From IMG/VR virus record IMGVR_UViG_3300014911_000001, positions 32,001-96,000 of that record: a stretch of 64,000 nucleotides of DNA. The stretch is one strand, 5' to 3'. Shown here in pieces: positions 34,089-44,844 of the stretch. This stretch comes from a virus. A program made the translations under genes and the position numbers. The first letter of the stretch is position 1. Every line of letters starts with the position of its first letter. Below the pieces are notes generated by a model that saw nothing but the letters and a program-made list of their open reading frames with translations, did not search any database and was not told the DNA's origin.

Positions 34089-34760
34089 TTATTCCACTTT
34101 ATTGACCCAGTCGGCTTTGGCATACGGCTTGCCGTTTATATACCACCTCTTCTCGGACGTTATGAGCACGGTTTCATAGCGCTCAAGTAGGTAATCGTTA
34201 CGCTCCCTTACCACGACAGCTTTAGGCTCAGGGATGATGGCATCGGTACCATGTGGAGGTGTGGGAGGGAAAATTGAAACGAGCTGACGTGGAAGGATGA
34301 CAAGAGAAAGGTGTTTGCCTTTCTGTTTGATGCGACTCCTGATGGTCTTCTCGAGACCCTTCTCGACGATTACGTAGCCATACGAATCCGCAGCCTCCTG
34401 GGCGAGTGTGTTCGCCATTTTATTCCCTGTTCTGGCTGTGTGTTTTACAATAACCTCCTTATGCTGGTTATCAGCGTAGTACCTAGCCAGCTCATATAAT
34501 TCCATAAGCTCAGGCTTCTTAATATCATATTCTTGGTTAAACTGCTTCACCACTAACTGTGAGTCGCTGTGTATTGTGGTATCACCCTGGATGTACTGGC
34601 TAATGTATGTCGCAAGAACTAGTGCTGCCCATTCAGCCTCGTTGTTTGTTGCCTCCCCAATGGGTATTGATAGTGATATACCAACCTCCGGAATATATAT
34701 CCCAATCCCAGCGGGACCGGGATTGCCTTTTGATGAGCCATCAATGTAAATGTTAGTCAT
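34089..34760 (-). CDS. rnhA: Ribonuclease HI family protein with C-terminal extension
   Basis: [36 protein letters not shown]. Confidence 0.85.
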
Positions 34761-34774
34761 AATACCTCCTTTAT

Positions 34775-35197
34775 TTATGGTTTAACTTTTCGTAAGCCGA
34801 GGCAACCTATCGGTCGTATGCTTCCACTGCTGGTCTTTTCATATACAGGATGAGCAATCGTGTATAACTTGTCTACGTTAGGTAGGTTGAGAGCAACTGC
34901 TGCAGAAGCATATTGATTACTAACAATTATTATATCAGCATCATCAGGGATGGGATCAATATCCTGTATCCTCTGTGTTATAACTGGGATCATAACCTCA
35001 CCGTTCACTGGACATTCGTAAAGGATGCTCGGAAGGAATTCGGTTTCATGGTGGACATTCAGAAGGATTCCGGAGGGTGGAATTATGGTAACTAGCTTGG
35101 TTTTTTCAGGCTCTATGAAGTATTTCCTGTGCTCACTTATGTAAACGGCGTCCTCAAAAATACATATCTCGTGAGGAGTGCAGTTTAAGATTTTCAT
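34775..35197 (-). CDS. Phage hypothetical protein (NxTPH type)
   Basis: [24 protein letters not shown]. Confidence 0.7.
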
Positions 35198-35219
35198 TAC
35201 ATACCTCCTTTTATTAGGC

Positions 35220-35279
35220 GGGCCTCATTACACCACCATGCAGAGCAGCAGGGCGAGGCCCTTAACCCTGAAGCTCTGC
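35220..35279 (-). promoter_or_regulatory. 5' leader pseudoknot (PK-g)
   Basis: Loop UAA-GGGCCUC pairs with GAGGCCC; RBS of 35197 follows. Confidence 0.7.
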
Positions 35280-35294
35280 GAAGAAAGAGAGCTA

Positions 35295-35627
35295 TTAGGA
35301 CAAGCGTTCTGCTTCCTGTCTAATCCGAACGGCATCCCTTACTACCTCTAACAGCGAAGGCGGTATAACCCTATTGTTCGAGGTTTTCCCAGTGCGCAAA
35401 TCAACTGCGACAGCACAATCATGCTCGTAAAAGTATACTATATCCCCATCCGGGAAGAATGTTCCATTAGCAGTAGCAACATTATAAATCAGATCGTTGG
35501 TGTATTCGCCGGGATCGCGATATGGTGTATAATGATCCTGAGCGTCCGGTGTTTCACAACCGGTAGTGCTTCTCACACATACATCACACCTGCCACTTCT
35601 ACACAGACGGCACTTATCAAATAACAT
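35295..35627 (-). CDS. Cys-rich hypothetical protein
   Basis: CxxC...CxxC N-terminus; RBS. Confidence 0.65.
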   Translation of the reverse strand: MLFDKCRLCRSGRCDVCVRSTTGCETPDAQDHYTPYRDPGEYTNDLIYNVATANGTFFPDGDIVYFYEHDCAVAVDLRTGKTSNNRVIPPSLLEVVRDAVRIRQEAERLS

Positions 35628-35654
35628 GATAACCTCCTTATTTTAATGTTTTAT

Positions 35655-35706
35655 GCCCGCCATTAACCAAGCCAGCAAGGACCGGCGGGCTTAGCCCTCA
35701 CTGACT
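35655..35706 (-). promoter_or_regulatory. 5' leader pseudoknot (PK-f)
   Basis: Loop UAA-GCCCGCC pairs with GGCGGGC; RBS of 35627 follows. Confidence 0.7.
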
Positions 35707-35726
35707 ATTAATTTCCAACTAATTGA

Positions 35727-36095
35727 CTACACAAGTGACGGGCCGAGGGCATCCTCTATTTTGGGACGCCCATACTCAACCTTCCACCCATTTTTAGGCG
35801 GAAGGTTGCGGACCCACCAGTCATACCACTGGCGGTCCATCACCTTTATAAGTTTGGATCGCTTGAAAAACACAGCGATCCACTTCCTTCTTCCCCCAGA
35901 ACGAGGGGAGAAAAACCATATAATCTCATTGGGTCGCACCTTGCCTGTTTTAACAAGATGCGACCACTGCGACCCAGTATTCACATTCTGGGCCGCTAAA
36001 ATAAACTCGTAATGGTTGCGCCACCTTTCGATGGCGCTCTCCCCGGATAACAACTTGGGGAGGTTGATTCTCAAGAAGTTAGTTAATGATAACAT
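35727..36095 (-). CDS. Hypothetical protein, paralog of 4362-4706; start trimmed to 36095
   Basis: GAGGAGG before ATG 36095; N-terminus matches paralog. Confidence 0.75.
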   Translation of the reverse strand: MLSLTNFLRINLPKLLSGESAIERWRNHYEFILAAQNVNTGSQWSHLVKTGKVRPNEIIWFFSPRSGGRRKWIAVFFKRSKLIKVMDRQWYDWWVRNLPPKNGWKVEYGRPKIEDALGPSLV

Positions 36096-36119
36096 AATAC
36101 ACCTCCTCTTTTGGAGGTT

Positions 36120-36175
36120 GCCTGCCACTTTTACCCACAGATAAGGCGAGGCCGGCAGGCTTAACCCCGCCTTAT
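36120..36175 (-). promoter_or_regulatory. 5' leader pseudoknot (PK-e)
   Basis: Stem AUAAGGCGGGGU/GCCUCGCCUUAU; loop UAA-GCCUGCC pairs with GGCAGGC. Confidence 0.7.
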
Positions 36176-36285
36176 CTTACTACTCCAGCTCATTGACTCC
36201 ATCACGAGCCAACAAGCCGGCCAAACCCTCCGTCACCCTCGCGGCACCGCTCCTCGCAGGCCGCACACAGGGGAGGAGGGCTTGG

Positions 36286-36353
36286 GGAGGCCTCTTAGAC
36301 CCTCTGTCGAGGGAGCTCCAGCGCCACGCCAAGGCGGGCCTCCAGTGCTGGAG
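36286..36353 (-). ncRNA. HDV-like ribozyme variant Rz1
   Basis: P1 CUCCAGC/GCUGGAG, P2 GGAGGCC/GGCCUCC, P3 GCC/GGC, L3 UUGGCGU, P4 CCCUC/GAGGG, J4/2 UCUAA. Confidence 0.8.
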
Positions 36354-36457
36354 TAGCCCCCGGCACGGGGGCTTCATTCTTTTTTCTCTCCACCTCCTTT
36401 CTAGCGGGATGAGCTAGCCCGGCCACCTAGCCCATCCCGCGGTTTAAGGTTTAACCT

Positions 36458-38857
36458 TTAATCGAGCTTCCAGAAGTTGAGCCAAAATTCGCGATCGGCA
36501 TTAGCAAGAGGATGAAGACCAGCAGGAGTTGTAATCCTAAGAAGCCGCGCGATTTCCCAGTTTCGCTTCCGACCAGTATGAAGTTCCACAAGAAATCTCA
36601 CATGAGATTCAAGTTCAGATTCGGTACCAGCAACAATTGCAAGGAAGTCGTTCTCAGCAACGGTAAGAGATTTCCAAGTGGTAAGAATTGCCTGAGGTTC
36701 AAACGCAGCAAGAAGTTTACGGAATCGCCGGTTGAGTCTCCGGAAGTTCCTAGTAAGAAGTATACGTAGCTCAGCAATCCTGCTGTTGAGGAAGCGCCTA
36801 CGCCGATCCAGTTCCCGTCTCCTATTTTTGAGGGTAGCCAGAGCATCGGATAGGGTATTAAGCCTAGGTAGCAGCCACTTTTCCATTTTCTGCCTCAGAA
36901 CTTCGTTTCTGATCCCAGATACTAGGAACCTGACTTTAGTTTCAGGTTTCGCATTAGCGAAGAGTCTCCGGCTCCGATTAACTACCGTATCAACCGCCGT
37001 CACTTTCTCCGCAAGAGCATTCACTTCATTTTCTATCTTCCGTATCCGAGAGAGCATCCGTCCAAACATGCGCCTCCTTATGCGATCCCACTTGAGGAAC
37101 AATGCCTTAACTTCTGGATCAATGGTGCCATCAGGAATAAGATCCTTAAGAGACCTAACTTCTGGCTCAGCAAACTTAACTTCAGGAATAAATTCAGCAA
37201 GAGGACCTGTCGGAGTTATGGCTGCTGGATCAGCTTTCGCGGTTCGGTTAGTGATCATTTGAGTAATAGTATCAAGCCTGGCAGTCGTACTCGCGAGTAG
37301 ATGCAGTCCCGCTTCTACCTCATGACGAAGCTCCGGTTCTTTACCATTAGCAAGATTCACCGCAGCTTGGAATAGCGCTCCAGCTTTCGCAATAAGATCC
37401 ACATTAATCTCAGTATCAGAAAGAAGCATCCTAGTGAAGCCAGCATCTGCCCGTGCGATCATCTCCTTCCCTAGCTCAATATTTTCCACTTCAGTACTAG
37501 GATCCATTCTCCACTTCCCGAAAGAGATTTCTTTTATCTTGCTTCGTATGCTATCGAAGAATTCCTTAGCAACAAGAGGCTCCTTGAAGACCTTGGATGC
37601 CGCGGCGAGAGCCACTTTGTCGCCATCGGCATCCCATCCGCTAGGCATATCTGCAGGGTGTACCAGAATCGCATGCGCACGATGGTCAACAATAATAGGA
37701 AGGATAAGAGTATCACCAGGCAAGATGGGCGACTTCTGTATGAGTAGGAGTTCTCCATCTTTCAGACCAAGCATACGTGCAATCACAGGAGGAATAACAG
37801 CAGTGCCGGGATGTGCATTCTGAAATCCCAGATAGAAGCCCGGGCCTAGTCTCAACTTCCGAAGTGCGATCTTTAAGTGGTCCAGAAGCACTCTCCGCAG
37901 GAAGCCTGCCTCCTTTATGAGGCCGAATTTCCGCAGAATATCAGCAGTCAGAGTCAGCACTGCACTAGGTTCATTGATCGGATCAGCGTTTTTAACAAGG
38001 ATATCAGCCGCTACCTCAGGATCAGAAAAACCATTAATAGCTTCAGCAATCTGCTCCTGAATCCGTTCAACAAACTCAGGCGCTGGATTAACATTCCATC
38101 CGAGTTTCCTTGGCAGAAGGAACCAGCGCGGCAGAGCTTGGCTGAGACTGATGCCACCCGCGAATACGGCACCAACCTCATGCAGCATGATGGTTCGCCC
38201 GAGTTCGAGTACGAAGCGCCGCCTCTTGATGAGTTTTGCGGTGTCAGCATCAGCGACGATATCAGTCCCTGTCTCTATCTCAGTAAGAACTTTATCAGCA
38301 AGAACCTCATCTCCCAGATACAACATCAGCCTCTGGAACCCGACTCTGCCGGGAAGAACTGGTACCGCTATCCCTTTCAGTCCAATAGCTGTAATCTTAA
38401 AACCACGTTTAATAAGAGCACGAGTTACCGCAGGGATATCAGCTTCTGTAGGAGCATGAGCACGCGCAACCAGCTCTGTAAACCTCTCGGACACGAAGAA
38501 AATTCCGTCTACACCCATTTTAGCATCGAGCTTGAGGCCGCGAACATCCACATTAGCCACTCGCTCAGGTTTAAAGTGCCAGCCCTTATTTGGGATCTCC
38601 GGAGTTGTCATCATCTGAATTCGCTTACCAGGAAGAGTTCTCAGATCAAATCCGTGATCGCCGAGGATATCTGCAATCACCTTATTAACCTTATCAATAG
38701 CAGAAGCAGGAACTACTCTAAAGACCCGACAATCAGGAACCATGGTTGGTTTCATTGGAAGATCAGAGTTCAGATCAGGATCAAATGCGAAGAAGACACT
38801 AGCACCAGCTTCAGCGAATAGAATAGCAAGAGGAGACTTCGGTATTCTTTCCATCAT
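36458..38857 (-). CDS. Putative single-subunit double-psi beta-barrel RNA polymerase (YonO / cellular RdRP-like architecture)
   Basis: Ordered motifs DGIFFVS, GLKG, QKSP, WDADGD; AAAGGAGGT before ATG at 38857/38854. Confidence 0.6.
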   Translation of the reverse strand: MMERIPKSPLAILFAEAGASVFFAFDPDLNSDLPMKPTMVPDCRVFRVVPASAIDKVNKVIADILGDHGFDLRTLPGKRIQMMTTPEIPNKGWHFKPERVANVDVRGLKLDAKMGVDGIFFVSERFTELVARAHAPTEADIPAVTRALIKRGFKITAIGLKGIAVPVLPGRVGFQRLMLYLGDEVLADKVLTEIETGTDIVADADTAKLIKRRRFVLELGRTIMLHEVGAVFAGGISLSQALPRWFLLPRKLGWNVNPAPEFVERIQEQIAEAINGFSDPEVAADILVKNADPINEPSAVLTLTADILRKFGLIKEAGFLRRVLLDHLKIALRKLRLGPGFYLGFQNAHPGTAVIPPVIARMLGLKDGELLLIQKSPILPGDTLILPIIVDHRAHAILVHPADMPSGWDADGDKVALAAASKVFKEPLVAKEFFDSIRSKIKEISFGKWRMDPSTEVENIELGKEMIARADAGFTRMLLSDTEINVDLIAKAGALFQAAVNLANGKEPELRHEVEAGLHLLASTTARLDTITQMITNRTAKADPAAITPTGPLAEFIPEVKFAEPEVRSLKDLIPDGTIDPEVKALFLKWDRIRRRMFGRMLSRIRKIENEVNALAEKVTAVDTVVNRSRRLFANAKPETKVRFLVSGIRNEVLRQKMEKWLLPRLNTLSDALATLKNRRRELDRRRRFLNSRIAELRILLTRNFRRLNRRFRKLLAAFEPQAILTTWKSLTVAENDFLAIVAGTESELESHVRFLVELHTGRKRNWEIARLLRITTPAGLHPLANADREFWLNFWKLD

Positions 38858-39018
38858 ATCACCTCCTTTCCGCCGCGGATTTCGTTGCCCTCGGTGCGGC
38901 ACTCCGAGGGTCGCCGGGCTTCGAGCGTCATTGGTGCCAAGGCTGGCCATAGAATGAAGCCCGGAAATTCCATGGCCATGGCCGGGCGCCTCAGCACCTC
39001 TGCCCTCTTTTTATCCAT
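38854..39018 (-). CDS. Putative 54-aa leader ORF coupled to the polymerase gene
   Basis: AAAGGAGGT before ATG 39018; its TGA overlaps the polymerase ATGATG. Confidence 0.4.
   Translation of the reverse strand: MDKKRAEVLRRPAMAMEFPGFILWPALAPMTLEARRPSECRTEGNEIRGGKEVI
38872..38910 (-). promoter_or_regulatory. 5' leader pseudoknot (PK-d) before polymerase RBS
   Basis: Stem CCCUCGG/CCGAGGG; loop GCCGC pairs with GCGGC next to the RBS. Confidence 0.55.
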
Positions 39019-39042
39019 TCTTTCTTACCTCCTTTATAAATA

Positions 39043-39121
39043 GAGGGACTCTTAGGCCCTTAGGCTATTGACCTAAGGGAGCCCCGGCGCCACGACAAGG
39101 CGGTCCCTCAAAAAGCCGGGG
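39043..39121 (-). ncRNA. HDV-like ribozyme variant Rz2
   Basis: P1 CCCCGGC/GCCGGGG, P2 GAGGGAC/GUCCCUC, P3 GCC/GGC, L3 UUGUCGU, P4 CCCUUAGG/CCUAAGGG, J4/2 CCUAA. Confidence 0.8.
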
Positions 39122-39589
39122 TTAACTCAATTTGACATCATTATTATCCTTCTCTTTCTTTATCCACTCTATCAATTCATCCACTAGGCGCTCCACATTA
39201 TAATCATCAATAATAAGAAGCGCCCTCCTGACCTTGTAGCCGAGCACCTCATGCGCTTTTAGCACATGCCTCGGCATCCAAGGCCAGGTCTCATTGTATC
39301 CCCCATTATATTTGATTTGGAGAAGGATTACCTCCTTCTTATGGGGGATACCAATGCTGACGTCGATTTTAAATACGACGTCAGCTTTACTCCCGATAGG
39401 ATAGTCTATTAATTTCCATCCCGCCGGAAGCTTGGAGGATAGTTCTTCAATGAATCTATCCTCCGCTTCGAAGCCAGCTCTATGCGCCTCATGTGCGATA
39501 GAGCTAACCTCGAAATCCGGGCGGATTATTTCATGACATTCCGCCCAGAATTTTCGCGCTATAGTGCGGGCATGCGTTTCCATATCCAT
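39122..39589 (-). CDS. Putative PD-(D/E)xK-fold nuclease
   Basis: GFEAE...KIDV...LLQIK spacing resembles the E...D...QxK variant. Confidence 0.4.
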   Translation of the reverse strand: MDMETHARTIARKFWAECHEIIRPDFEVSSIAHEAHRAGFEAEDRFIEELSSKLPAGWKLIDYPIGSKADVVFKIDVSIGIPHKKEVILLQIKYNGGYNETWPWMPRHVLKAHEVLGYKVRRALLIIDDYNVERLVDELIEWIKKEKDNNDVKLS

Positions 39590-39601
39590 GGTTGCCTCCT
39601 T

Positions 39602-40177
39602 TTACTCGACAAGAACATGATATATTCCATTTATTTTCTTTACTTTCCTTACTCTAAATAAACATTTATCCACAATTACTTCCTCTTCTTCACAATAAGG
39701 TTGCAAATTCAACAATCTCCCCTCTGCTTTAGTCATAAATACAACAGGAACTACATCAGGAAAATTATATCCTTCCCACAAATCCGGGTCATCAAACTCG
39801 TTATCATAACTTCTCTTTTTTCAAATTGCGAAGCGCTTTGCAACTGCATAACGCCTCGTCCAACTCATATTGATAGATATTTTCCTCCCTATCTGAGGGA
39901 TAGCATATACAACATCCCCTCTGAATAATAGTGATCTTACCTTAGGACACCCTAATAACGATATTTTTAAGGCGAGCTTAGAAATATAGATACCTCTCCC
40001 CTTCCACATTCTCAGCAAAGCGATCCTATTGTCTTTTGAAAATATCCCGCACAAAATTCTCAGCTTTTTCAATAACAGCTTGTATTTCATTTGGAGATGG
40101 TTCAGCTTTATTTCCCAACTCCTGTAAAAAACATTCCTTTTAGGATCTTTAATGAATAACGAAATGACCCACCACAT
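39602..40177 (-). pseudogene. ADP-ribosyltransferase-like gene interrupted by in-frame TGA at 39821-39823
   Basis: LFRG and SWT before the stop; frame stays open 72 more codons containing EEEVIV. Confidence 0.6.
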
Positions 40178-40192
40178 TGTTACACCTCCTTT

Positions 40193-40251
40193 TGCCCGTA
40201 TTAGTTTACCAAGGGCACCATCTGACCTGCGGGCATTGATCAGACGGTGCC
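40193..40251 (-). promoter_or_regulatory. 5' leader pseudoknot (PK-c)
   Basis: Stem GGCACCGUCUGAUC/GGUCAGAUGGUGCC; loop UGCCCG pairs with CGGGCA next to the RBS of 40177. Confidence 0.6.
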
Positions 40252-40320
40252 TATGTTACAAAACGGGCACCGTATAGTCATGGTAACAATACGGTGCCCT
40301 CACAACATCCCCTTTTATTA

Positions 40321-40396
40321 GGGTGCTCTTAGACCCTTAGGGATTGGACCTAAGGGAGCCCCTCCACCACGTCAAGGTGGCACCCTATCGGAGGGG
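40321..40396 (-). ncRNA. HDV-like ribozyme variant Rz3
   Basis: P1 CCCCUCC/GGAGGGG, P2 GGGUGC/GCACCC, P3 ACC/GGU, L3 UUGACGU, P4 CCCUUAGG/CCUAAGGG, J4/2 UCUAA. Confidence 0.8.
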
Positions 40397-40449
40397 TAGC
40401 AAGGCCATCATGTGAGGCCTTGCTTTGGCTTGGGCGGCACCTCATCATC

Positions 40450-40746
40450 TTACACATAAAAGCGATCCAACCCCTCAATATGAGGGGTTGTTTTGCTCTC
40501 CCTATCAACGATGTACAAGTTAGTCCCTATCCGAAATATGTCATGATACTTACACGCCTCCGGCTCCACAATAAGCTCTGCATCCTCAGGTATATATCCA
40601 ACCCATCCTTTGTACAAGCACCTCCGCACTAAGACATGAGTAAAACAGCTGGAATCAACAAGTGTAAGTCTATCATCATCATCATCGTAAATTCCGATAT
40701 ACCAGTAGTTATCTCTCACCAAGACTTTAATGACTTTTACCGCCAC
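40450..40746 (-). CDS. Hypothetical protein; GTG start at 40746
   Basis: AAAGGAGG upstream of GTG; the longer ORF start lies within RNA structure. Confidence 0.65.
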   Translation of the reverse strand: MAVKVIKVLVRDNYWYIGIYDDDDDRLTLVDSSCFTHVLVRRCLYKGWVGYIPEDAELIVEPEACKYHDIFRIGTNLYIVDRESKTTPHIEGLDRFYV

Positions 40747-40761
40747 GATAAACCTCCTTTC

Positions 40762-40820
40762 GCCGCACCTCAGTTCAGCCCCCGACACGCATGCGGTGCG
40801 GCATTTACATACGTGTCGGG
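40762..40820 (-). promoter_or_regulatory. 5' leader pseudoknot (PK-b)
   Basis: 14-bp stem; loop AAAU-GCCGCACC pairs with GGUGCGGC abutting the RBS. Confidence 0.7.
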
Positions 40821-40836
40821 ATGCCGCCCAAGCCAT

Positions 40837-40907
40837 CGGACGCTCTTAGACCTAGCCACAAGGCTAGGAGCCCCTCCACCACGTCAAGGTGGCGTCCGTC
40901 GGAGGGG
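40837..40907 (-). ncRNA. HDV-like ribozyme variant Rz4
   Basis: P1 CCCCUCC/GGAGGGG, P2 CGGACGC/GCGUCCG, P3 ACC/GGU, L3 UUGACGU, P4 CCUAGC/GCUAGG, J4/2 UCUAA. Confidence 0.8.
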
Positions 40908-40956
40908 TAGCAAGGCCATGCGAGACCTTGCTTTGTCTGCGGGGGCACCATGAATA

Positions 40957-41190
40957 TTATAACTCTGATGGACGGGGCCTCTGTAACGATTCAAAATATA
41001 GCGATAAAGCCTCCATGAATGTCACAGGAATCCCTTTTTTCTTATACTGGAATGGAGGCGCCGGAACATTACCCAGCACCTCCTTTGTTATTTTTATTGC
41101 AATGTAACCTCTAAGTTCCTTAAACCGGTATGTCTTGATTTCACCATTATTATAAATGGTGATAGCATTCACGTTTTTTGACATCCTCAT
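40957..41190 (-). CDS. Small hypothetical protein
   Basis: GGAGG RBS; sits inside RNA cassette. Confidence 0.65.
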   Translation of the reverse strand: MRMSKNVNAITIYNNGEIKTYRFKELRGYIAIKITKEVLGNVPAPPFQYKKKGIPVTFMEALSLYFESLQRPRPSEL

Positions 41191-41206
41191 TTTATCCTCC
41201 TTTTTC

Positions 41207-41266
41207 GCCGCGCCTTGGTTCTACGCCCAGCATGTACGCGGCGCGGCATTTACGCACATGCTGGGC
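41207..41266 (-). promoter_or_regulatory. 5' leader pseudoknot (PK-a)
   Basis: 15-bp stem; loop AAAU-GCCGCGCC pairs with GGCGCGGC next to the RBS. Confidence 0.7.
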
Positions 41267-41759
41267 TGGCGCCCCCGCAATCCCCTATTAGCCGAGGAAG
41301 CAAATCAAAAATCAAGGGGGCAGGGGGGTCGAAATACAATCCGACCCCCTCAAAATCCACAATAGAGACCTCCTGAATTTTTTGCCGATTTCTTGACCCT
41401 TATGGACCTCCCTGTAGACTCATTCCGACGGGGTACCTTGCGGCATAGGGAGGTGTTCTATGAGGTTGTTGGTTGGACTGGATATGGGCTTGTGATGGTT
41501 ATTGTGTTAGGGTCTGGGGGGTGTGGGACCTCTTGTGGGCTTGTTTGTGACTATGTGGGTTGGTGTGGGCTACCCCTTTTCGACCCTATGGGTCTGCTCT
41601 CTATAAGGCTTCCTGCTTCAGCGAGGGATAGCTAGGCTTATGTGAAGCCCCCGCCAGAGCCCTCTCCACAGGCATAAGTTCGGGCCGCCCCGGCCCTACC
41701 ACCCGTGAGGTGGGTGAGCCCATTTTTTGTGATGTATGTTGTGTGTATGTTAGCATTTT

Positions 41760-42203
41760 TTATATACCTGTGCTACCGAATCCATTTTGGTTGCGTGTTG
41801 TGGGTGTTACATCATTGACAGGTTCGAATTCGCATGGATGTATTCGTGATATTATTATTTGGGCTATTCTATCGCCGTCTTTTATGGTAATGTTTTTGTT
41901 ACCGAGGTTGATGAGGATGACCATTATTTCGCCTCTGTAGTCGCTATCTATGGTTCCTGGTGAGTTAAGGACCGTTAGTCCGTGTCTGAGTGCTAGTCCA
42001 CTTCTTGGGCGGATTTGTGCTTCGTAGTTGTTGGGTAGTTCTAGTATGAAGCCGGCCGGTATGGCTTTATATTCACCCGGGTGTAGTGTTATGGGTTTTT
42101 GGAGTCTTGCGAAGATGTCGTAGCCTGCTGAACCCGGGGTCATTTTTCTTGGCATTGTACCGCCGGGCAGAAGTTTTAGTTTGATTTTATTAGTGTTACT
42201 CAT
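41760..42203 (-). CDS. dut: Trimeric dUTPase (probable start MSNTNK)
   Basis: AGYD, RSG, GTIDSDYRGE, RIAQ, RNQNGFGSTG. Confidence 0.93.
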   Translation of the reverse strand: MSNTNKIKLKLLPGGTMPRKMTPGSAGYDIFARLQKPITLHPGEYKAIPAGFILELPNNYEAQIRPRSGLALRHGLTVLNSPGTIDSDYRGEIMVILINLGNKNITIKDGDRIAQIIISRIHPCEFEPVNDVTPTTRNQNGFGSTGI

Positions 42204-42428
42204 GGCTACTGGATTTAATTTGTTCGTTCTTACTGTTACTAATAGGTTTGATACCCAGTACCCATTGGGCACCGCATTCACATATTAGTGTCATCCTTTT
42301 ATACCCTTGCGTATCGGATGCTGTGAATACGATGGACACAGATTGACCGTCTTTTAGGTTCCATCCTTCTATTATGTTTGTTTTACCGCATACGGGGCAT
42401 GTGAAGAAGCCCGCCCATTTTTGTTCCT

Positions 42429-42824
42429 TCATTTTATCTCCTTATTGTTTTTATCGTTGAAATATGTTTTTCTAAATTCCTCTAGGATAGGTTCATCACC
42501 TGTACCATAGAGGACGGCGTGCATCCATTCAGTTACTTGATCTGCTGTATGGTGTGGAAATACATCCTTCATGCATCCGAAGTATTTTTGCCAGTTGGTT
42601 GGTTTAGGTTTTTTATGTTCTTTTATAGTCCATTTTTTGGTAGCTGTGGCGGATCCGTAGGTTGTGAGGATGAGGCCTATAATTATTATTATTATGGTGT
42701 ATGTAGTGGGATTATTGGTGTAGTGGTGGAGGAGGAAGCCGGCCGCAGTGGTAAGGAGGCCCCAGAATCGTTTGCTTTTCCAGAAGGGTTTGGTGTTATT
42801 ATTGTTATTATCGTGTGTGCTCAT
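42429..42824 (-). CDS. Holin-like two-TM membrane protein
   Basis: KPFWKSKRFWG followed by two hydrophobic helices. Confidence 0.45.
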   Translation of the reverse strand: MSTHDNNNNNTKPFWKSKRFWGLLTTAAGFLLHHYTNNPTTYTIIIIIIGLILTTYGSATATKKWTIKEHKKPKPTNWQKYFGCMKDVFPHHTADQVTEWMHAVLYGTGDEPILEEFRKTYFNDKNNKEIK

Positions 42825-44052
42825 TTTGGATCTCCTTTATGTTATGAAGCCCGCGCTTCAGTATATTAATACTTGCATTATAATCTCTATCGAGGGTTGC
42901 ACCACAGAACGGACATTTATGTATACGATCGTGGAGTGATTTGGGTACCTTATGTCCACATGAGGAGCATGTCTGCGTAGTATATGCTGGGTTAACCTTG
43001 ATGACCTGTGAGCCGTGAAGCCGCGCCTTGTAGGATGTTAGATTGATAAGTGTGTTCCATCCTGCATCGTAGATGTATTTAGAGAGGTGAAGCCGGCGGC
43101 GCTTGCTTACAAGATCACGTATTTTTATATCCTCGAATATAATAATATCATAGTTAGTAGCAAGCTGGTGTGAGATATGATGGAGGAAGCCGCGCCGCAT
43201 GTTAGCTAATCGTTCATGGAGTCTGGCTAGTTTACGCCTCTGTTTCATATAATTAGCACTCCCTCGCTGCTTGCGCGAGAGCTGTTTTTGTACACGCTTT
43301 ATACGTTTTTCGAGTTTGGTGATGAAGCGCGGGTTAGATACAATATTACCATCACTTGATACGATGAGATTCGTAAGCCCGAGATCTATACCGATGATGC
43401 GCTGCTTATTATTAGTATCGATAACGATAGTAGCGTCATTATTATTGGGTACTTCAACTGTTACATATACATACCATCTACCGCTGGGATGTCTTTTTAT
43501 AGTAACATTTTTGGCTTTAGTCCAGTCGATGGGTCGGTGAAGGCGGATTTTTAAGCCGCCGAGTTTGGGTAAATGAATATATGCGAACTTATCATTCAGT
43601 TTCTCAAATTTAATGACAGGATACCCATCCGGATAGTTTTTATGAGTCATCCAAACTTGTGGATATGTAAGTGATAGATATTGATCAGGTTTTTTGGGTT
43701 TAGGCGGACTTATATGTCCTTCTTTATTCCTGATGGCTACAAAGAAACGCTTATATGCCCAGTCAATCTTATCAATTATAGCCTTTAAGACACCTGAATA
43801 AACGAGCCTTAAGGCAGGTTCCTCTCTTTTAAATGCGGTTAGGTTACGTTGCCTCTCAAATTTTGTAGGGGTTCTATGTTCTTCATCCCATATACGTCTG
43901 TATTCATTTATTTCGTAATTATAGAACCAGCAGAGGATGGACAGCCAGTTTTCTAGTTTGTATTCTTGTAGTGTTGTTGGATAGGCTCTGAATTTGTAGG
44001 TGAGGTAGGAAGCCGCCGCCTTATCAGTATTTTTTGATCCCTGTTTATTCAT
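42808..44052 (-). CDS. tnpB: IS200/IS605-family TnpB RNA-guided endonuclease
   Basis: YKFRAYPT, GIDLG, FEDI, YTTQTCSSCG, CPFCG, DRDYNASINI. Confidence 0.92.
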   Translation of the reverse strand: MNKQGSKNTDKAAASYLTYKFRAYPTTLQEYKLENWLSILCWFYNYEINEYRRIWDEEHRTPTKFERQRNLTAFKREEPALRLVYSGVLKAIIDKIDWAYKRFFVAIRNKEGHISPPKPKKPDQYLSLTYPQVWMTHKNYPDGYPVIKFEKLNDKFAYIHLPKLGGLKIRLHRPIDWTKAKNVTIKRHPSGRWYVYVTVEVPNNNDATIVIDTNNKQRIIGIDLGLTNLIVSSDGNIVSNPRFITKLEKRIKRVQKQLSRKQRGSANYMKQRRKLARLHERLANMRRGFLHHISHQLATNYDIIIFEDIKIRDLVSKRRRLHLSKYIYDAGWNTLINLTSYKARLHGSQVIKVNPAYTTQTCSSCGHKVPKSLHDRIHKCPFCGATLDRDYNASINILKRGLHNIKEIQNEHTR

Positions 44053-44391
44053 TTCATTATGTTACTATATGATGGAACATTTTATATTGGATATGTTACA
44101 CTATGGTATAACATCTCTCTCCTCTGTCTCTATGGACATATTGATCATATCTATTATGTCCTCAGGTAGGGAGTGAAGAATCTCTCTGAACTCGTCCTCA
44201 CCATCGAATACATAAACAGATAAGCGCCCGCATTTTTCATAGTCACCACACGGATGAATGCGTCTTATATCCCATGCGACCTTATCTTTTGATGTTATCA
44301 CCTTTATGTTGAACTCAGCATTGACTATCGTTGACTCTCCCTTCCATATGTTAACGCAAGGATTAACGCAATAGTTAACGCATAGGTACAT

Positions 44392-44844
44392 TCATGCATC
44401 TCCAAACCGTTGCATCAACCGTTCCATGCTTTTTCTAAAGAGCTTCACCGATGCGTACAATAGATTGGCAGCAATAGCAAGATAAAGCACACCTATAGGA
44501 GGCTTTGAGAGGAACGGTACGACACTTGATACAATAAATGCAATACTCATGTTAGCAGCAAACTGATGATAACGAAAATAATGATTCAGTATTCCTTCGT
44601 AGACACTAACATCATCACTTGATAGATTTTCAAATGTTATGTGAGTTTTTGATGAAATACCACATATGAAATTATAACGAATCGTATCAATAATAAGCCC
44701 CAGCATGAAGGATGATACAGCAAATGCACATGCCCATAAGCCCCACGGTATAGTTGGACCAAAAAGTCCTATCTTATATATATGGAGAAGAAGGAAGAAG
44801 CCCGGCAGAAAATGAGCAATAAAAACACCATATAAGAAACTCAT
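44392..44844 (-). CDS. Four-TM membrane protein
   Basis: Hydrophobic segments; RBS. Confidence 0.65.
   Translation of the reverse strand: MSFLYGVFIAHFLPGFFLLLHIYKIGLFGPTIPWGLWACAFAVSSFMLGLIIDTIRYNFICGISSKTHITFENLSSDDVSVYEGILNHYFRYHQFAANMSIAFIVSSVVPFLSKPPIGVLYLAIAANLLYASVKLFRKSMERLMQRFGDA

Follow-up and report, generated by a model that had tools for sequence, protein, structure and literature searches.

The function of self-cleaving ribozymes in phages and bacteria has long been an open question (PMC6765202), and the locus described here raises it for four short elements lying between protein genes: do they belong to the HDV family with both pairs beside the scissile phosphate reversed, and what would they do for the genes they surround? 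The window, that is the whole stretch of 64,000 nucleotides that was analysed, is part of a phage genome of 175,796 bp (IMG/VR record IMGVR_UViG_3300014911_000001). A first-pass annotation had listed four non-canonical HDV-like ribozymes in it, and the nested double pseudoknot of HDV was confirmed on the minus strand for all of them:

40838..40907, minus strand: ribozyme d, 70 nt; predicted cut between 40908 and 40907, 5' of C1; 69.8 bits, E 7.5e-14; P1 CCCCUCC/GGAGGGG; catalytic-position C at 40849
40320..40396, minus strand: ribozyme c, 77 nt; predicted cut between 40397 and 40396; 98.3 bits; P1 identical to that of ribozyme d, P2 and P4 unlike; catalytic-position C at 40332
39043..39121, minus strand: ribozyme b, 79 nt; 91 bits; P1 CCCCGGC/GCCGGGG; catalytic-position C at 39055; first base directly behind the UAA stop (39124-39122) of a 155-aa ORF, as originally annotated
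36286..36353, minus strand: ribozyme a, 68 nt; predicted cut between 36354 and 36353; 79.7 bits; P1 CUCCAGC/GCUGGAG; catalytic-position C at 36298

The elements follow each other in the order P1 (7 bp), J1/2, P2 (8 bp), P3 (3 bp), L3 (UUGNCGU), P3', P1', CU, P4 (5-8 bp in the window copies), U or C, CUAA, G, A and P2'. This is the HDV order that had been proposed, and the compensatory changes claimed for P1, P2, P3 and P4 were found as well. In the four window copies alone 96% of the cells are paired and 11 pairs show compensatory changes, as compared to 37-56% paired cells and 0-1 compensatory pairs in slid controls. When the covariance model was run over the whole genome only these four copies were matched (E 1e-13 to 1e-20), the next match having E>1. 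Pattern searches in IMG/VR required stricter patterns to recover relatives; among the matches listed for a loose pattern nearly all were due to chance, and no copy turned up in two scans of 185,579 prokaryote genomes. The resulting flipped-core set comprises about 45 distinct sequences, with or without P4, on other phage contigs. In a set of 23 distinct sequences 97.3% of 557 pair cells are paired (37-52% in slid controls) and compensatory changes occur in 20 of 27 pairs, distributed to P1 (6/7), P2 (6/8), P3 (1/3), and P4 (7/8). The 22 distinct relatives lacking P4 are paired in 152 of 154 P1 cells, with 14 different P1 sequences. G-U pairs appear only when the minus strand is read. Three further loci (L131, L132, and L133) were judged to be chance matches because they have no P1/P2 pairing, and a pattern with the canonical P1.1 (UUC...GU) and CUAAGAG yielded one truncated chance match.

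The helices vary in sequence, and the core does not follow the canonical rules. C1 paired to G37, which had been noted in all four copies, extends to the relatives and was found in 22 of 22 distinct sequences of one group and 22 of 22 of the other, at positions left free by the search patterns. The replacement of the canonical C22-G38 by G22-C38 likewise holds in the four copies and in about 45 relatives; the reversed pair can form, with U21 facing U39, and as it never varies the P1.1 pair is not itself proven by covariation. The bulged A described in P2' is present, adjoins the first P2 pair, and extends to the about 45 relatives as well. U20, C24, G25, and the catalytic-position C of J4/2 are constant in the window copies, in agreement with the first-pass annotation, and L3 reads UUGNCGU in all four. 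Beyond the window the catalytic-position C occurs in all 23 and 22 distinct copies and U20 and G25 in every copy, including those found by the covariance model alone, and C24 is changed to U in one relative; the constancy of L3, CU, and CUAAGA among database relatives is partly imposed by the search patterns. A control pattern with A, G, or U in place of the catalytic-position C retrieved one unrelated coding locus in which the helices are absent. The A at position -1 proved to be a property of the four window copies and not a general rule, as relatives have U or C at this position, never G. Both stacked pairs beside the scissile phosphate are thus reversed (G1-Y37 to C1-G37 and C22-G38 to G22-C38), which is probably one coupled change.

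These departures bear on detection. Neither the window nor the remaining 112 kb of the genome yielded an Rfam 15 family at gathering score, and in the ribozyme region the models of the HDV clan gave no match even at E<=10. Published descriptors fix G1-Y and a C-G pair in P1.1 (PMC6326823) and would therefore miss the flipped-core variant, as had been suspected from the sequence; theta ribozyme matches all read G ... T, CC ... GG. No published description of the variant was found in the literature. Censuses based on descriptors and Rfam give too low a count of HDV-like ribozymes in phages. Descriptors hard-code G1 and its wobble pair, which have been treated as belonging to the HDV active site, and here is a natural lineage which departs from them. 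With C1-G37 always accompanied by the reversed P1.1 pair, the about 45 distinct sequences offer a ready-made double-mutant cycle which would probe the real contribution of the pair at the cleavage site.

The surroundings of the four elements show an unusually explicit layout, with ribozymes, hairpins before the predicted cleavage sites, end-joining arms, and leader structures close to the Shine-Dalgarno sequence (SD), enclosing exchangeable genes which include a probable phage RNA polymerase:

41267..41279, minus strand: 5' arm of the cassette (ORF 41190-40957) which lies upstream of ribozyme d; pairs 12 of 13 with 40938-40950
40938..40950, minus strand: 3' arm of this upstream cassette
40910..40931, minus strand: GC hairpin GCAAGG...CCUUGC and UA, ending 2 nt before the ribozyme d cut; no U-tract
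40822..40835, minus strand: 5' arm of cassette D, beginning 2 nt past the end of ribozyme d; pairs 14 of 14 with 40426-40439
40450..40746, minus strand: 98-aa ORFan between ribozymes d and c, GTG start behind AAAGGAGG
40426..40439, minus strand: 3' arm of cassette D, immediately ahead of the hairpin preceding ribozyme c
40399..40423, minus strand: GC hairpin and UA directly before ribozyme c
39122..40177, minus strand: block of three ORFs (118, 59, and 155 aa) bracketed by ribozymes c and b, without a match to any family
38951..38962, minus strand: 5' arm of the cassette with the probable polymerase; pairs 12 of 12 with 36369-36380, 2.6 kb away
36458..38857, minus strand: 799-aa ORF between ribozymes b and a, DADGD at residues 409-413
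36369..36380, minus strand: 3' arm of the cassette with the probable polymerase, sharing bases with the foot of the hairpin in front of ribozyme a
36356..36372, minus strand: GC hairpin GCCCCCG UGC CGGGGGC and UA directly before ribozyme a

The repeated unit consists of ribozyme, 5' arm, leader hairpin, SD, ORF, complementary 3' arm, GC hairpin, UA, and the next ribozyme. It is not uniform, since arms are missing from cassette C and an upstream hairpin from ribozyme b. The GC hairpins lack a U-tract, end 1-2 nt before the cut site, and covary, as do the complementary arms between relatives; the whole of cassette D folds with z=-5.0, with arms, hairpins, and ribozyme P1, P3, and P4 all present. 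Two or more predicted ribozymes of like orientation enclose single genes or short blocks whose content varies: a close relative, 90-99% identical, has different ORFs between these ribozymes and leaders, and the bracketing recurs in an unrelated GC-rich phage (L129). Also in unrelated contigs the ribozymes are always intergenic and in sense orientation, with an ORF following after 13-63 nt. A 65-aa ORF (36180-36377) which would run through ribozyme a was not accepted as a gene because the copy in a relative is 1 nt shorter inside it (67 compared to 68 nt) and its ATG lies within the 3' arm. The 799-aa protein is a probable single-chain two-barrel RNA polymerase; it has no match in Pfam, PHROG, PDB sequences, or GenBank phages, and as its full-length AlphaFold model is poor (pLDDT 46) only residues 337-444 were used. 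The neighbouring ORFs and those beside ribozymes in other phages yielded no shared function, and a scan for promoters and terminators revealed no enrichment.

We consider it fairly probable that the four elements are self-cleaving ribozymes of the HDV fold which act as insulators, processing a polycistronic transcript into cassette mRNAs. By analogy with HDV, the C of CUAA would serve as general acid and a metal would be bound at the conserved G25-U20 reverse wobble. Cutting 5' of C1 would give an upstream RNA ending in a 2',3'-cyclic phosphate and a downstream RNA starting with a 5'-OH; the latter RNA would keep the ribozyme as a cap-like fold at its 5' end. A long minus-strand transcript of the early/middle region would in this way be cut to cassette-length mRNAs. 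By the general rules of bacterial RNA decay, upstream products ending in a GC hairpin and UA with cyclic phosphate should resist 3' exonucleases, and downstream products starting with a folded ribozyme and a 5'-OH should be poor substrates for decay depending on a 5'-monophosphate. In three cassettes a helix of 12-14 bp could join the 5' and 3' ends. The ribozymes may thus be host-independent insulators which define the ends of swappable cassettes, including that of the phage RNA polymerase gene.

The alternative that survives best, which we nevertheless regard as unlikely, is that the fold is real and catalytically dead or very slow, the elements being structural modules of 5' untranslated regions descended from theta-type ribozymes; they might block exonucleases, bind proteins, or enhance translation, as proposed for HDV-like ribozymes of R2 elements. 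A review calls G1 invariant, and G1 with its wobble pair invariant or essential for HDV-like activity (PMC8495972), so that C1 could mean slow cleavage or none; the tolerated C24U and the proposal of HDV-like RNAs as IRES-like elements (PMC6765202) point in the same direction. A purely structural role, however, gives no reason why the unpaired letters of J4/2 and L3 should equal those of active theta ribozymes, or why the catalytic-position C, G25, and U20 should stay in every copy while all helices turned over, and a hairpin placed 1-2 nt before nucleotide 1 is sensible mainly if an end is created there.

It is more doubtful still whether selection acts mainly on the DNA, with blocks of ribozyme and leader as recombination boundaries shuffling ORFan cassettes and RNA cleavage being secondary. 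T4-type phages have cassettes of promoter and stem-loop to which such shuffling can be likened. In favour of such boundaries, the close relative (L130) has ribozymes, leaders, and flanking genes 90-99% identical to those of the window, with unrelated ORFs and one extra cassette between them, and ribozymes c and d have P1, core, and upstream hairpin in common. Plain recombination boxes, on the other hand, need neither compensatory changes in four helices nor conserved catalytic letters, and single copies without a repeat partner occur in unrelated AT-rich and GC-rich phages. A boundary role of the DNA and cleavage of the RNA are compatible and may coexist. A chance similarity, or a simple dispersed repeat lacking any RNA function, has nothing but the absent Rfam match to speak for it; it is refuted by covariation far above shuffled and slid controls and by the same architecture in non-homologous contigs of 40% to 80% GC, and has practically no probability left.

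Returning to the predicted insulator ribozymes, their place among known systems is best explained as a flipped-core branch, hitherto undescribed, within the theta/minimal HDV-like ribozymes of phages. Theta ribozymes are experimentally active minimal HDV-like ribozymes from Caudoviricetes (Kienbeck et al. 2024, PMC10879173), which have in common with the window elements the nested double pseudoknot, the occurrence in phages, the frame RCC-U-NN-NCGU-GGY, and CUAA in J4/2, so that the latter is not a departure from them. They have G1, CC (or UC/AC) in L3 paired to GG (GA/GU), and no P4, and mostly abut the 3' end of a tRNA, whereas the elements described here have C1-G37, UG in L3 with CU after P1, a bulged A atop P2, and a P4 of 5-8 bp; within the theta core RCC-U-CC-NCGU-GGY...GG...CUAA, CC/GG has become UG/CU and G1 has become C1. 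The contrast drawn by the first-pass annotation with tRNA-linked theta ribozymes stands in part: no tRNA gene occurs in the window, in the rest of the genome, or near the P4-less relatives, and no predicted cut lies within +/-5 nt of a tRNA 3' end, but about 42% of theta ribozymes likewise do not adjoin tRNAs and lie isolated in sense orientation near ORFs (PMC10879173), so that the intergenic position is not unique to the flipped-core elements. The L3 word TTGACGT does not occur in the available part of the theta supplementary tables. The minimal theta form, with a short L4 for P4, is not that of the window copies, and P4-less flipped-core relatives exist elsewhere.

The mammalian HDV-like CPEB3 ribozyme has a 7-nt L3 (UUNACGU) and one Watson-Crick P1.1 pair above U-U. 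It shares both of these features, the 7-bp P1, and the 3-bp P3 with the window elements, and is unlike them in its C22-G38 pair, G1-U37 wobble, CGAA in J4/2, and intronic eukaryotic context. Among the general features of HDV-like ribozymes the order of the double pseudoknot, the catalytic C opening J4/2, and U20, C24, and G25 in L3 are all present, and G1-Y37 and a P1.1 of C22(C21)-G38(G39) are not. According to passages of a 2026 paper, fast natural ribozymes of the HDV family tolerate a P1.1 other than C-G, namely U:A over U:U or C:U, one of these ribozymes being from a phage; the same passages mention neither a flipped G-C pair nor C1 (PMC13635239).

Regarding the layout, the cassettes might be natural counterparts of engineered ribozyme-circularised RNAs, a reading to which we attach little probability: two successive HDV-like cuts would release an mRNA with 5'-OH and 2',3'-cyclic phosphate, and joining and sealing of its ends would lead to circular or panhandle mRNAs. 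Synthetic ribozyme insulators and the RNase III sites of T7 achieve intercistronic cleavage to mRNAs with defined, structured ends, and in Tornado RtcB ligates the 5'-OH and 2',3'-cyclic-phosphate ends which ribozymes have generated and a stem keeps together; unlike the present cassettes, these systems are engineered or depend on host enzymes, and we know of no natural phage system of such a design. Circularisation would have the ends joined by the arms of 12-14 bp and the hairpin-UA end re-docked beside a ribozyme with the same P1 (c and d). Sealing could be done by a host ligase of the RtcB type or by the ribozyme itself; the phage genome contains no RtcB gene. The transcripts would come from a terminator-blind two-barrel RNA polymerase of the phage, and the coupled flip to C1-G37 and G22-C38 would have adapted the active site to the cycle.

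The arrangement of genes bracketed by ribozymes is already published for clustered hammerheads in prophages (Perreault et al. 2011, PMC3088659), which flank single genes and are active in cleavage both in vitro and in vivo. These differ in being hammerheads, with an internal cut and no closing arms, pre-site hairpins, or leader pseudoknots described. Processing of long phage transcripts was proposed as their role, with circular products considered, and as in the present phage, nearby ribozymes surround single genes or short blocks of variable identity (PMC3088659).

The four elements lie on the minus strand of a phage record of 175,796 bp that is judged complete and of which the window covers bases 32001-96000. 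Their coordinates cover exactly the span which the first-pass annotation had claimed for four HDV-like copies; its observation is confirmed and its reading supported. The elements are named from the lowest window coordinates upwards:

36353-36286, minus strand: ribozyme a, HDV-like layout
39121-39043, minus strand: ribozyme b, HDV-like layout
40396-40320, minus strand: ribozyme c, HDV-like layout
40907-40838, minus strand: ribozyme d, HDV-like layout

The elements are 68-79 nt long and a single layout is common to all of them. Its 5' part consists of P1 (7 bp), J1/2 (3-5 nt), P2 (8 positions), P3 (RCC) and the L3 loop UUGNCGU, and its 3' part of P3' (GGY), P1', CU, a P4 hairpin of 5-8 bp, one pyrimidine, CUAA, G-A and the P2 3' strand. 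The helices follow and cross one another as in the nested double pseudoknot of HDV. Even at E≤10 ribozymes a-d matched no Rfam family, not even one of the HDV clan, and no other Rfam family was found in the whole genome. A covariance model of the four elements retrieved only these four in a whole-genome search (E 1e-13 to 1e-20), the next match lying above E=1. Within ribozymes a-d alone 96% of the pair cells hold standard pairs and 11 pairs show changes on both sides, as compared to 37-56% paired cells and 0-1 such pairs when the 3' partners were moved by 1-3 columns. Pattern scans in IMG/VR and JGI metagenomes, with the covariance model applied after them, yielded 38 matches with 23 distinct sequences. 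In their alignment 97.3% of 557 cells are paired (37-52% in slid controls), with compensatory changes in 20 of 27 pairs. As P1 and P2 were left free in every search pattern, the covariation within them counts as independent evidence. Only the minus-strand reading contains G-U pairs. Pairing and compensatory change measured against the slid controls, together with this strand bias, therefore show the HDV-like fold to be real.

The related loci, and the copies recovered by the covariance model only, were:

L130 (IMGVR_UViG_3300005098_000017): close relative, five copies, the fifth recovered by the model only
L129: GC-rich 39-kb phage, about 80% GC, two copies, the second recovered by the model only, with CCAA for CUAA and the G-A bulge kept
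L128, L053, L144 and L145: AT-rich contigs, about 40-45% GC
L140: groundwater contig
L134:1015-1091 and L148:845-921: model-only copy of ribozyme c with C24U in L3, otherwise intact

Since the search patterns prescribed L3, CU and CUAAGA(G), invariance of these positions among the database matches is partly circular, and the model-only copies form the less biased sample of conservation. All of them retain the C at the catalytic position, U20 and G25. The C24U copy may have been inactivated, or the change may be tolerated. A control pattern in which A, G or U replaced the catalytic C, and which spans three times the sequence space of the catalytic-C pattern, hit a single coding locus; it was present in four contigs that are nearly identical, and it lacks P1, P2 and P4. 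In 185,579 prokaryote genomes no ribozyme with the flipped core, i.e. C1-G37 and G22-C38 instead of G1-Y37 and C22-G38, was found.

A further pattern, allowing 0-10 nt between CU and CUAAGA, yielded about 55 P4-less loci in IMG/VR (L170-L224, e.g. L204:7075-7106), which correspond to 22 distinct sequences by their -1 nucleotide, P1 and P2. Their core is C1-G37, UUGACGU, CU and CUAA-G-A, with UUGAA, UUAAA or similar as L4. P1 is represented by 14 different helices with 152 of 154 cells paired, C1-G37 is present in all 22 sequences, and position -1 holds A, U or C, with no G among them. Most of these loci are located 15-45 nt upstream of a same-strand ORF, mostly in 80-150-kb phage contigs from one sample series; one ribozyme lies downstream of a major head protein gene, and no tRNA adjoins any of the loci. 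As the flipped core is common to the P4-less loci, ribozymes a-d are P4-bearing members of a wider branch. In every member of this branch C1-G37 occurs together with the reversed P1.1, though the patterns had left P1 free.

Ribozymes a-d are placed between protein genes, rather than next to tRNAs, and the genome contains no tRNA. Almost all genes of the region are on the minus strand and have a strong AAAGGAGG Shine-Dalgarno (SD) sequence upstream. They include:

34092-34760: RNase H, a separate gene
36458-38857, minus strand: 799-aa ORF bracketed by ribozymes b and a
41763-42281: dUTPase
42811-44052, minus strand: TnpB/IS605 OrfB with Cas12f1-like TNB, OrfB_IS605 and HTH domains, two genes upstream of the cassette array

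The 799-aa ORF probably encodes a single-chain two-barrel RNA polymerase. Language-model neighbours of this ORFan are clusters with PF05183 (score 0.95, 193 shared features), and its DADGD motif (residues 409-413) is unchanged in all six relatives. In the AlphaFold model only residues 337-444 are confident; they match the double-psi barrel found in the largest subunits of Pol I, archaeal RNAP, Pol IV and Pol II, and in the phage P23-45 and AR9 polymerases (best barrel match Z 11.7, rmsd 2.9 Å, 107 aligned residues). The family is tiny: 1.8 billion representative proteins include five relatives, of which one, P0004 (1109 aa), carries a fused RNase H domain. ORFans of the region had no Pfam or PHROG match. 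The 570 nt after the dUTPase gene (41191-41759, minus strand) contain no ORF of at least 90 aa, only a 51-aa minus-strand ORF (41601-41756); GC-rich hairpins are followed there by a C/A-rich tract, with no Rfam match.

A GC hairpin without a U-tract precedes three of the four ribozymes and ends 2 nt (UA) before C1. This hairpin covaries among relatives (GCAAGGCC.../GCGGGGUC.../GCCCCCG...), and the unrelated L129 has a hairpin whose end lies 1-2 nt (CA or A) upstream of C1. The start of one ribozyme directly after a UAA stop, pointed out in the first-pass annotation, applies to ribozyme b, which follows a 155-aa ORF, and is conserved in relatives. Complementary arms enclose several units:

40835-40822: 14-nt arm right after ribozyme d, fully complementary to 40439-40426 before the ribozyme c hairpin
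38962-38951 with 36380-36369: arms of the polymerase gene, 12/12 complementary, spanning 2.6 kb

A 12/13 arm pair surrounds the ORF upstream of ribozyme d. In relatives the sequence of the arms differs and the complementarity stays: a GGCCGGCCGG arm has its own complement in L130, L147 and L148, and a GGCUUGGUCCUGCCUU arm is matched by AAGGCAGGGCCAAGCC in L134. Cassette D, the 98-aa ORF unit between ribozymes d and c, folds as a whole with z=-5.0, and its minimum-energy structure contains the pre-site hairpins, P1, P3 and P4 of the ribozyme and the closing arms. No arms were found in cassette C, the three-ORF unit between ribozymes c and b, so the layout is not universal.

Further RNA features were observed around the cassettes. 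Between ribozyme (or arm) and SD the minus strand forms leader hairpins (40750-40837, 41196-41282, 40190-40319, 38860-38930 and 36100-36180) with the loops …AUGCCGCAC…, …AUGCCGCGCC…, …AUGCCCGCA…, …GUGCCGCA… and …GCCUGCC…. The loops are complementary to 6-9 nt just 5' of AAAGGAGG, and this complementarity covaries between leaders, which look like a family of H-type pseudoknots adjoining the SD; Rfam contains no match to them. Just before ribozyme a (36377-36354, minus strand) there are a strong SD and ATG (AAAGGAGGUG-N13-AUGAAGCCC), conserved in L130 and L142; the ATG also belongs to the polymerase cassette's 3' arm. The frame from this ATG would enter ribozyme a and have no stop codon after cleavage. 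In the minimum-energy fold the upstream GGAGG can have the 3' strand of P2 as an alternative partner. A GC-rich 54-aa ORF (38854-39018, minus strand) with its own SD, located between ribozyme b and the start of the polymerase, contains the 5' arm, and its stop overlaps the polymerase start (AUAUGAUG). In relatives SD and ATG are kept at this site and the sequence differs; the ORF may be a leader peptide or RNA structure only. Two long-range complementarities, 39941-39958 with 40315-40332 (15/18; an internal part of the next ORF against J4/2 and P2' of ribozyme c) and 36161-36173 with 39113-39125 (12/13; the leader that follows ribozyme a against the stop codon and P1 of ribozyme b), could be alternative pairings modulating folding, or chance.

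With an HDV-type fold, the catalytic letters of active phage relatives, co-oriented genes and a stable hairpin that reaches up to the predicted cut, ribozymes a-d are likely, as far as can be judged from sequence, to be self-cleaving insulators of the flipped-core branch that process a long transcript. Each would cut 5' of C1, co- or post-transcriptionally, giving the upstream mRNA a hairpin-UA end with a cyclic phosphate and the downstream mRNA a 5'-OH buried in the ribozyme fold, and the arms would tie both ends of single-gene messages. Stability and translation would then be set for each cassette independently of its neighbours, without host RNases or terminators. Intrinsic terminators are ignored by some phage polymerases of the single-chain two-barrel type; if the 799-aa polymerase were terminator-blind as well, ribozymes would be a sensible means of defining RNA ends. 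It is unlikely that the fold is dead or slow and of structural use only, a reading to be set beside the possibly inactivated C24U copy on the one hand and the catalytic C of all model-only copies on the other.

A main selected role as DNA-level recombination boundaries, which would be compatible with a role in RNA, is quite improbable; the comparison to L130 bears on it. L130 is 90-99% identical to window positions 35170-44630 over ribozymes, leaders and flanking genes. Between the ribozymes it carries unrelated ORFs and one extra (fifth) ribozyme cassette, and a 0.5-kb insertion follows its ribozyme b copy. With RNA elements conserved and ORFs swapped, the units therefore behave as exchangeable cassettes, which indicates shuffling with breakpoints in the RNA elements. 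As to the fate of the insulated messages, sealing of cassettes into circles or panhandles via the 5'-OH and cyclic-phosphate ends is doubtful at best; the phage genome contains no RtcB gene. A chance resemblance to HDV ribozymes hardly merits consideration given the compensatory changes.

According to their supplementary tables, theta ribozymes, the phage minimal HDV-like ribozymes (PMC10879173), share P3 RCC/GGY, the L3 frame U-NN-NCGU and J4/2 CUAA with ribozymes a-d. They have CC in L3 and GG after P1, whereas ribozymes a-d have UG and CU, so that C22-G38 becomes G22-C38 and C21-G39 becomes U21 opposite U39. Likewise, theta G1 pairs with Y37, and C1 with G37 in ribozymes a-d. Past CUAA, ribozymes a-d differ in that G pairs with the last C of the P2 5' strand and A is unpaired before the remaining P2, and unlike theta ribozymes they carry a real P4. 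Their CUAA departs from C-R-R-A of the general HDV descriptor (PMC6326823), but being common to theta ribozymes it is no departure from the phage relatives. A review from the Lupták lab regards the cleavage-site G-U wobble as essential and G1 as one of the invariant nucleotides of active HDV-like ribozymes (PMC8495972). In a design study G1-Y35, the two P1.1 C-G pairs, U, C and G of L3 and CRRA were kept fixed (PMC6326823), and the theta paper names the cleavage site G1 (PMC10879173). The word TTGACGT/UUGACGU is absent from the 1.4 million characters covered of the theta supplements (PMC10879173). According to the accessible part of a paper on phage and nematode HDV ribozyme crystal structures, P1.1 can be U:A over U:U or C:U in ribozymes that are still fast, and P1.1 identity is therefore flexible; this part does not mention a reversed G-C or C1 (PMC13635239). 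No paper on the combination of C1-G37 with reversed P1.1 was found in the literature. The reversals at 1-37 and 22-38, which are stacked active-site pairs, look like a coupled change. Clustered hammerheads flanking single prophage genes, for which cleavage was demonstrated, have been interpreted in the same way as insulators here (PMC3088659). By their sequences, ribozymes a-d are assigned to the HDV-like/theta lineage, with a flipped core and in ribozyme-flanked cassettes hitherto known for hammerheads.
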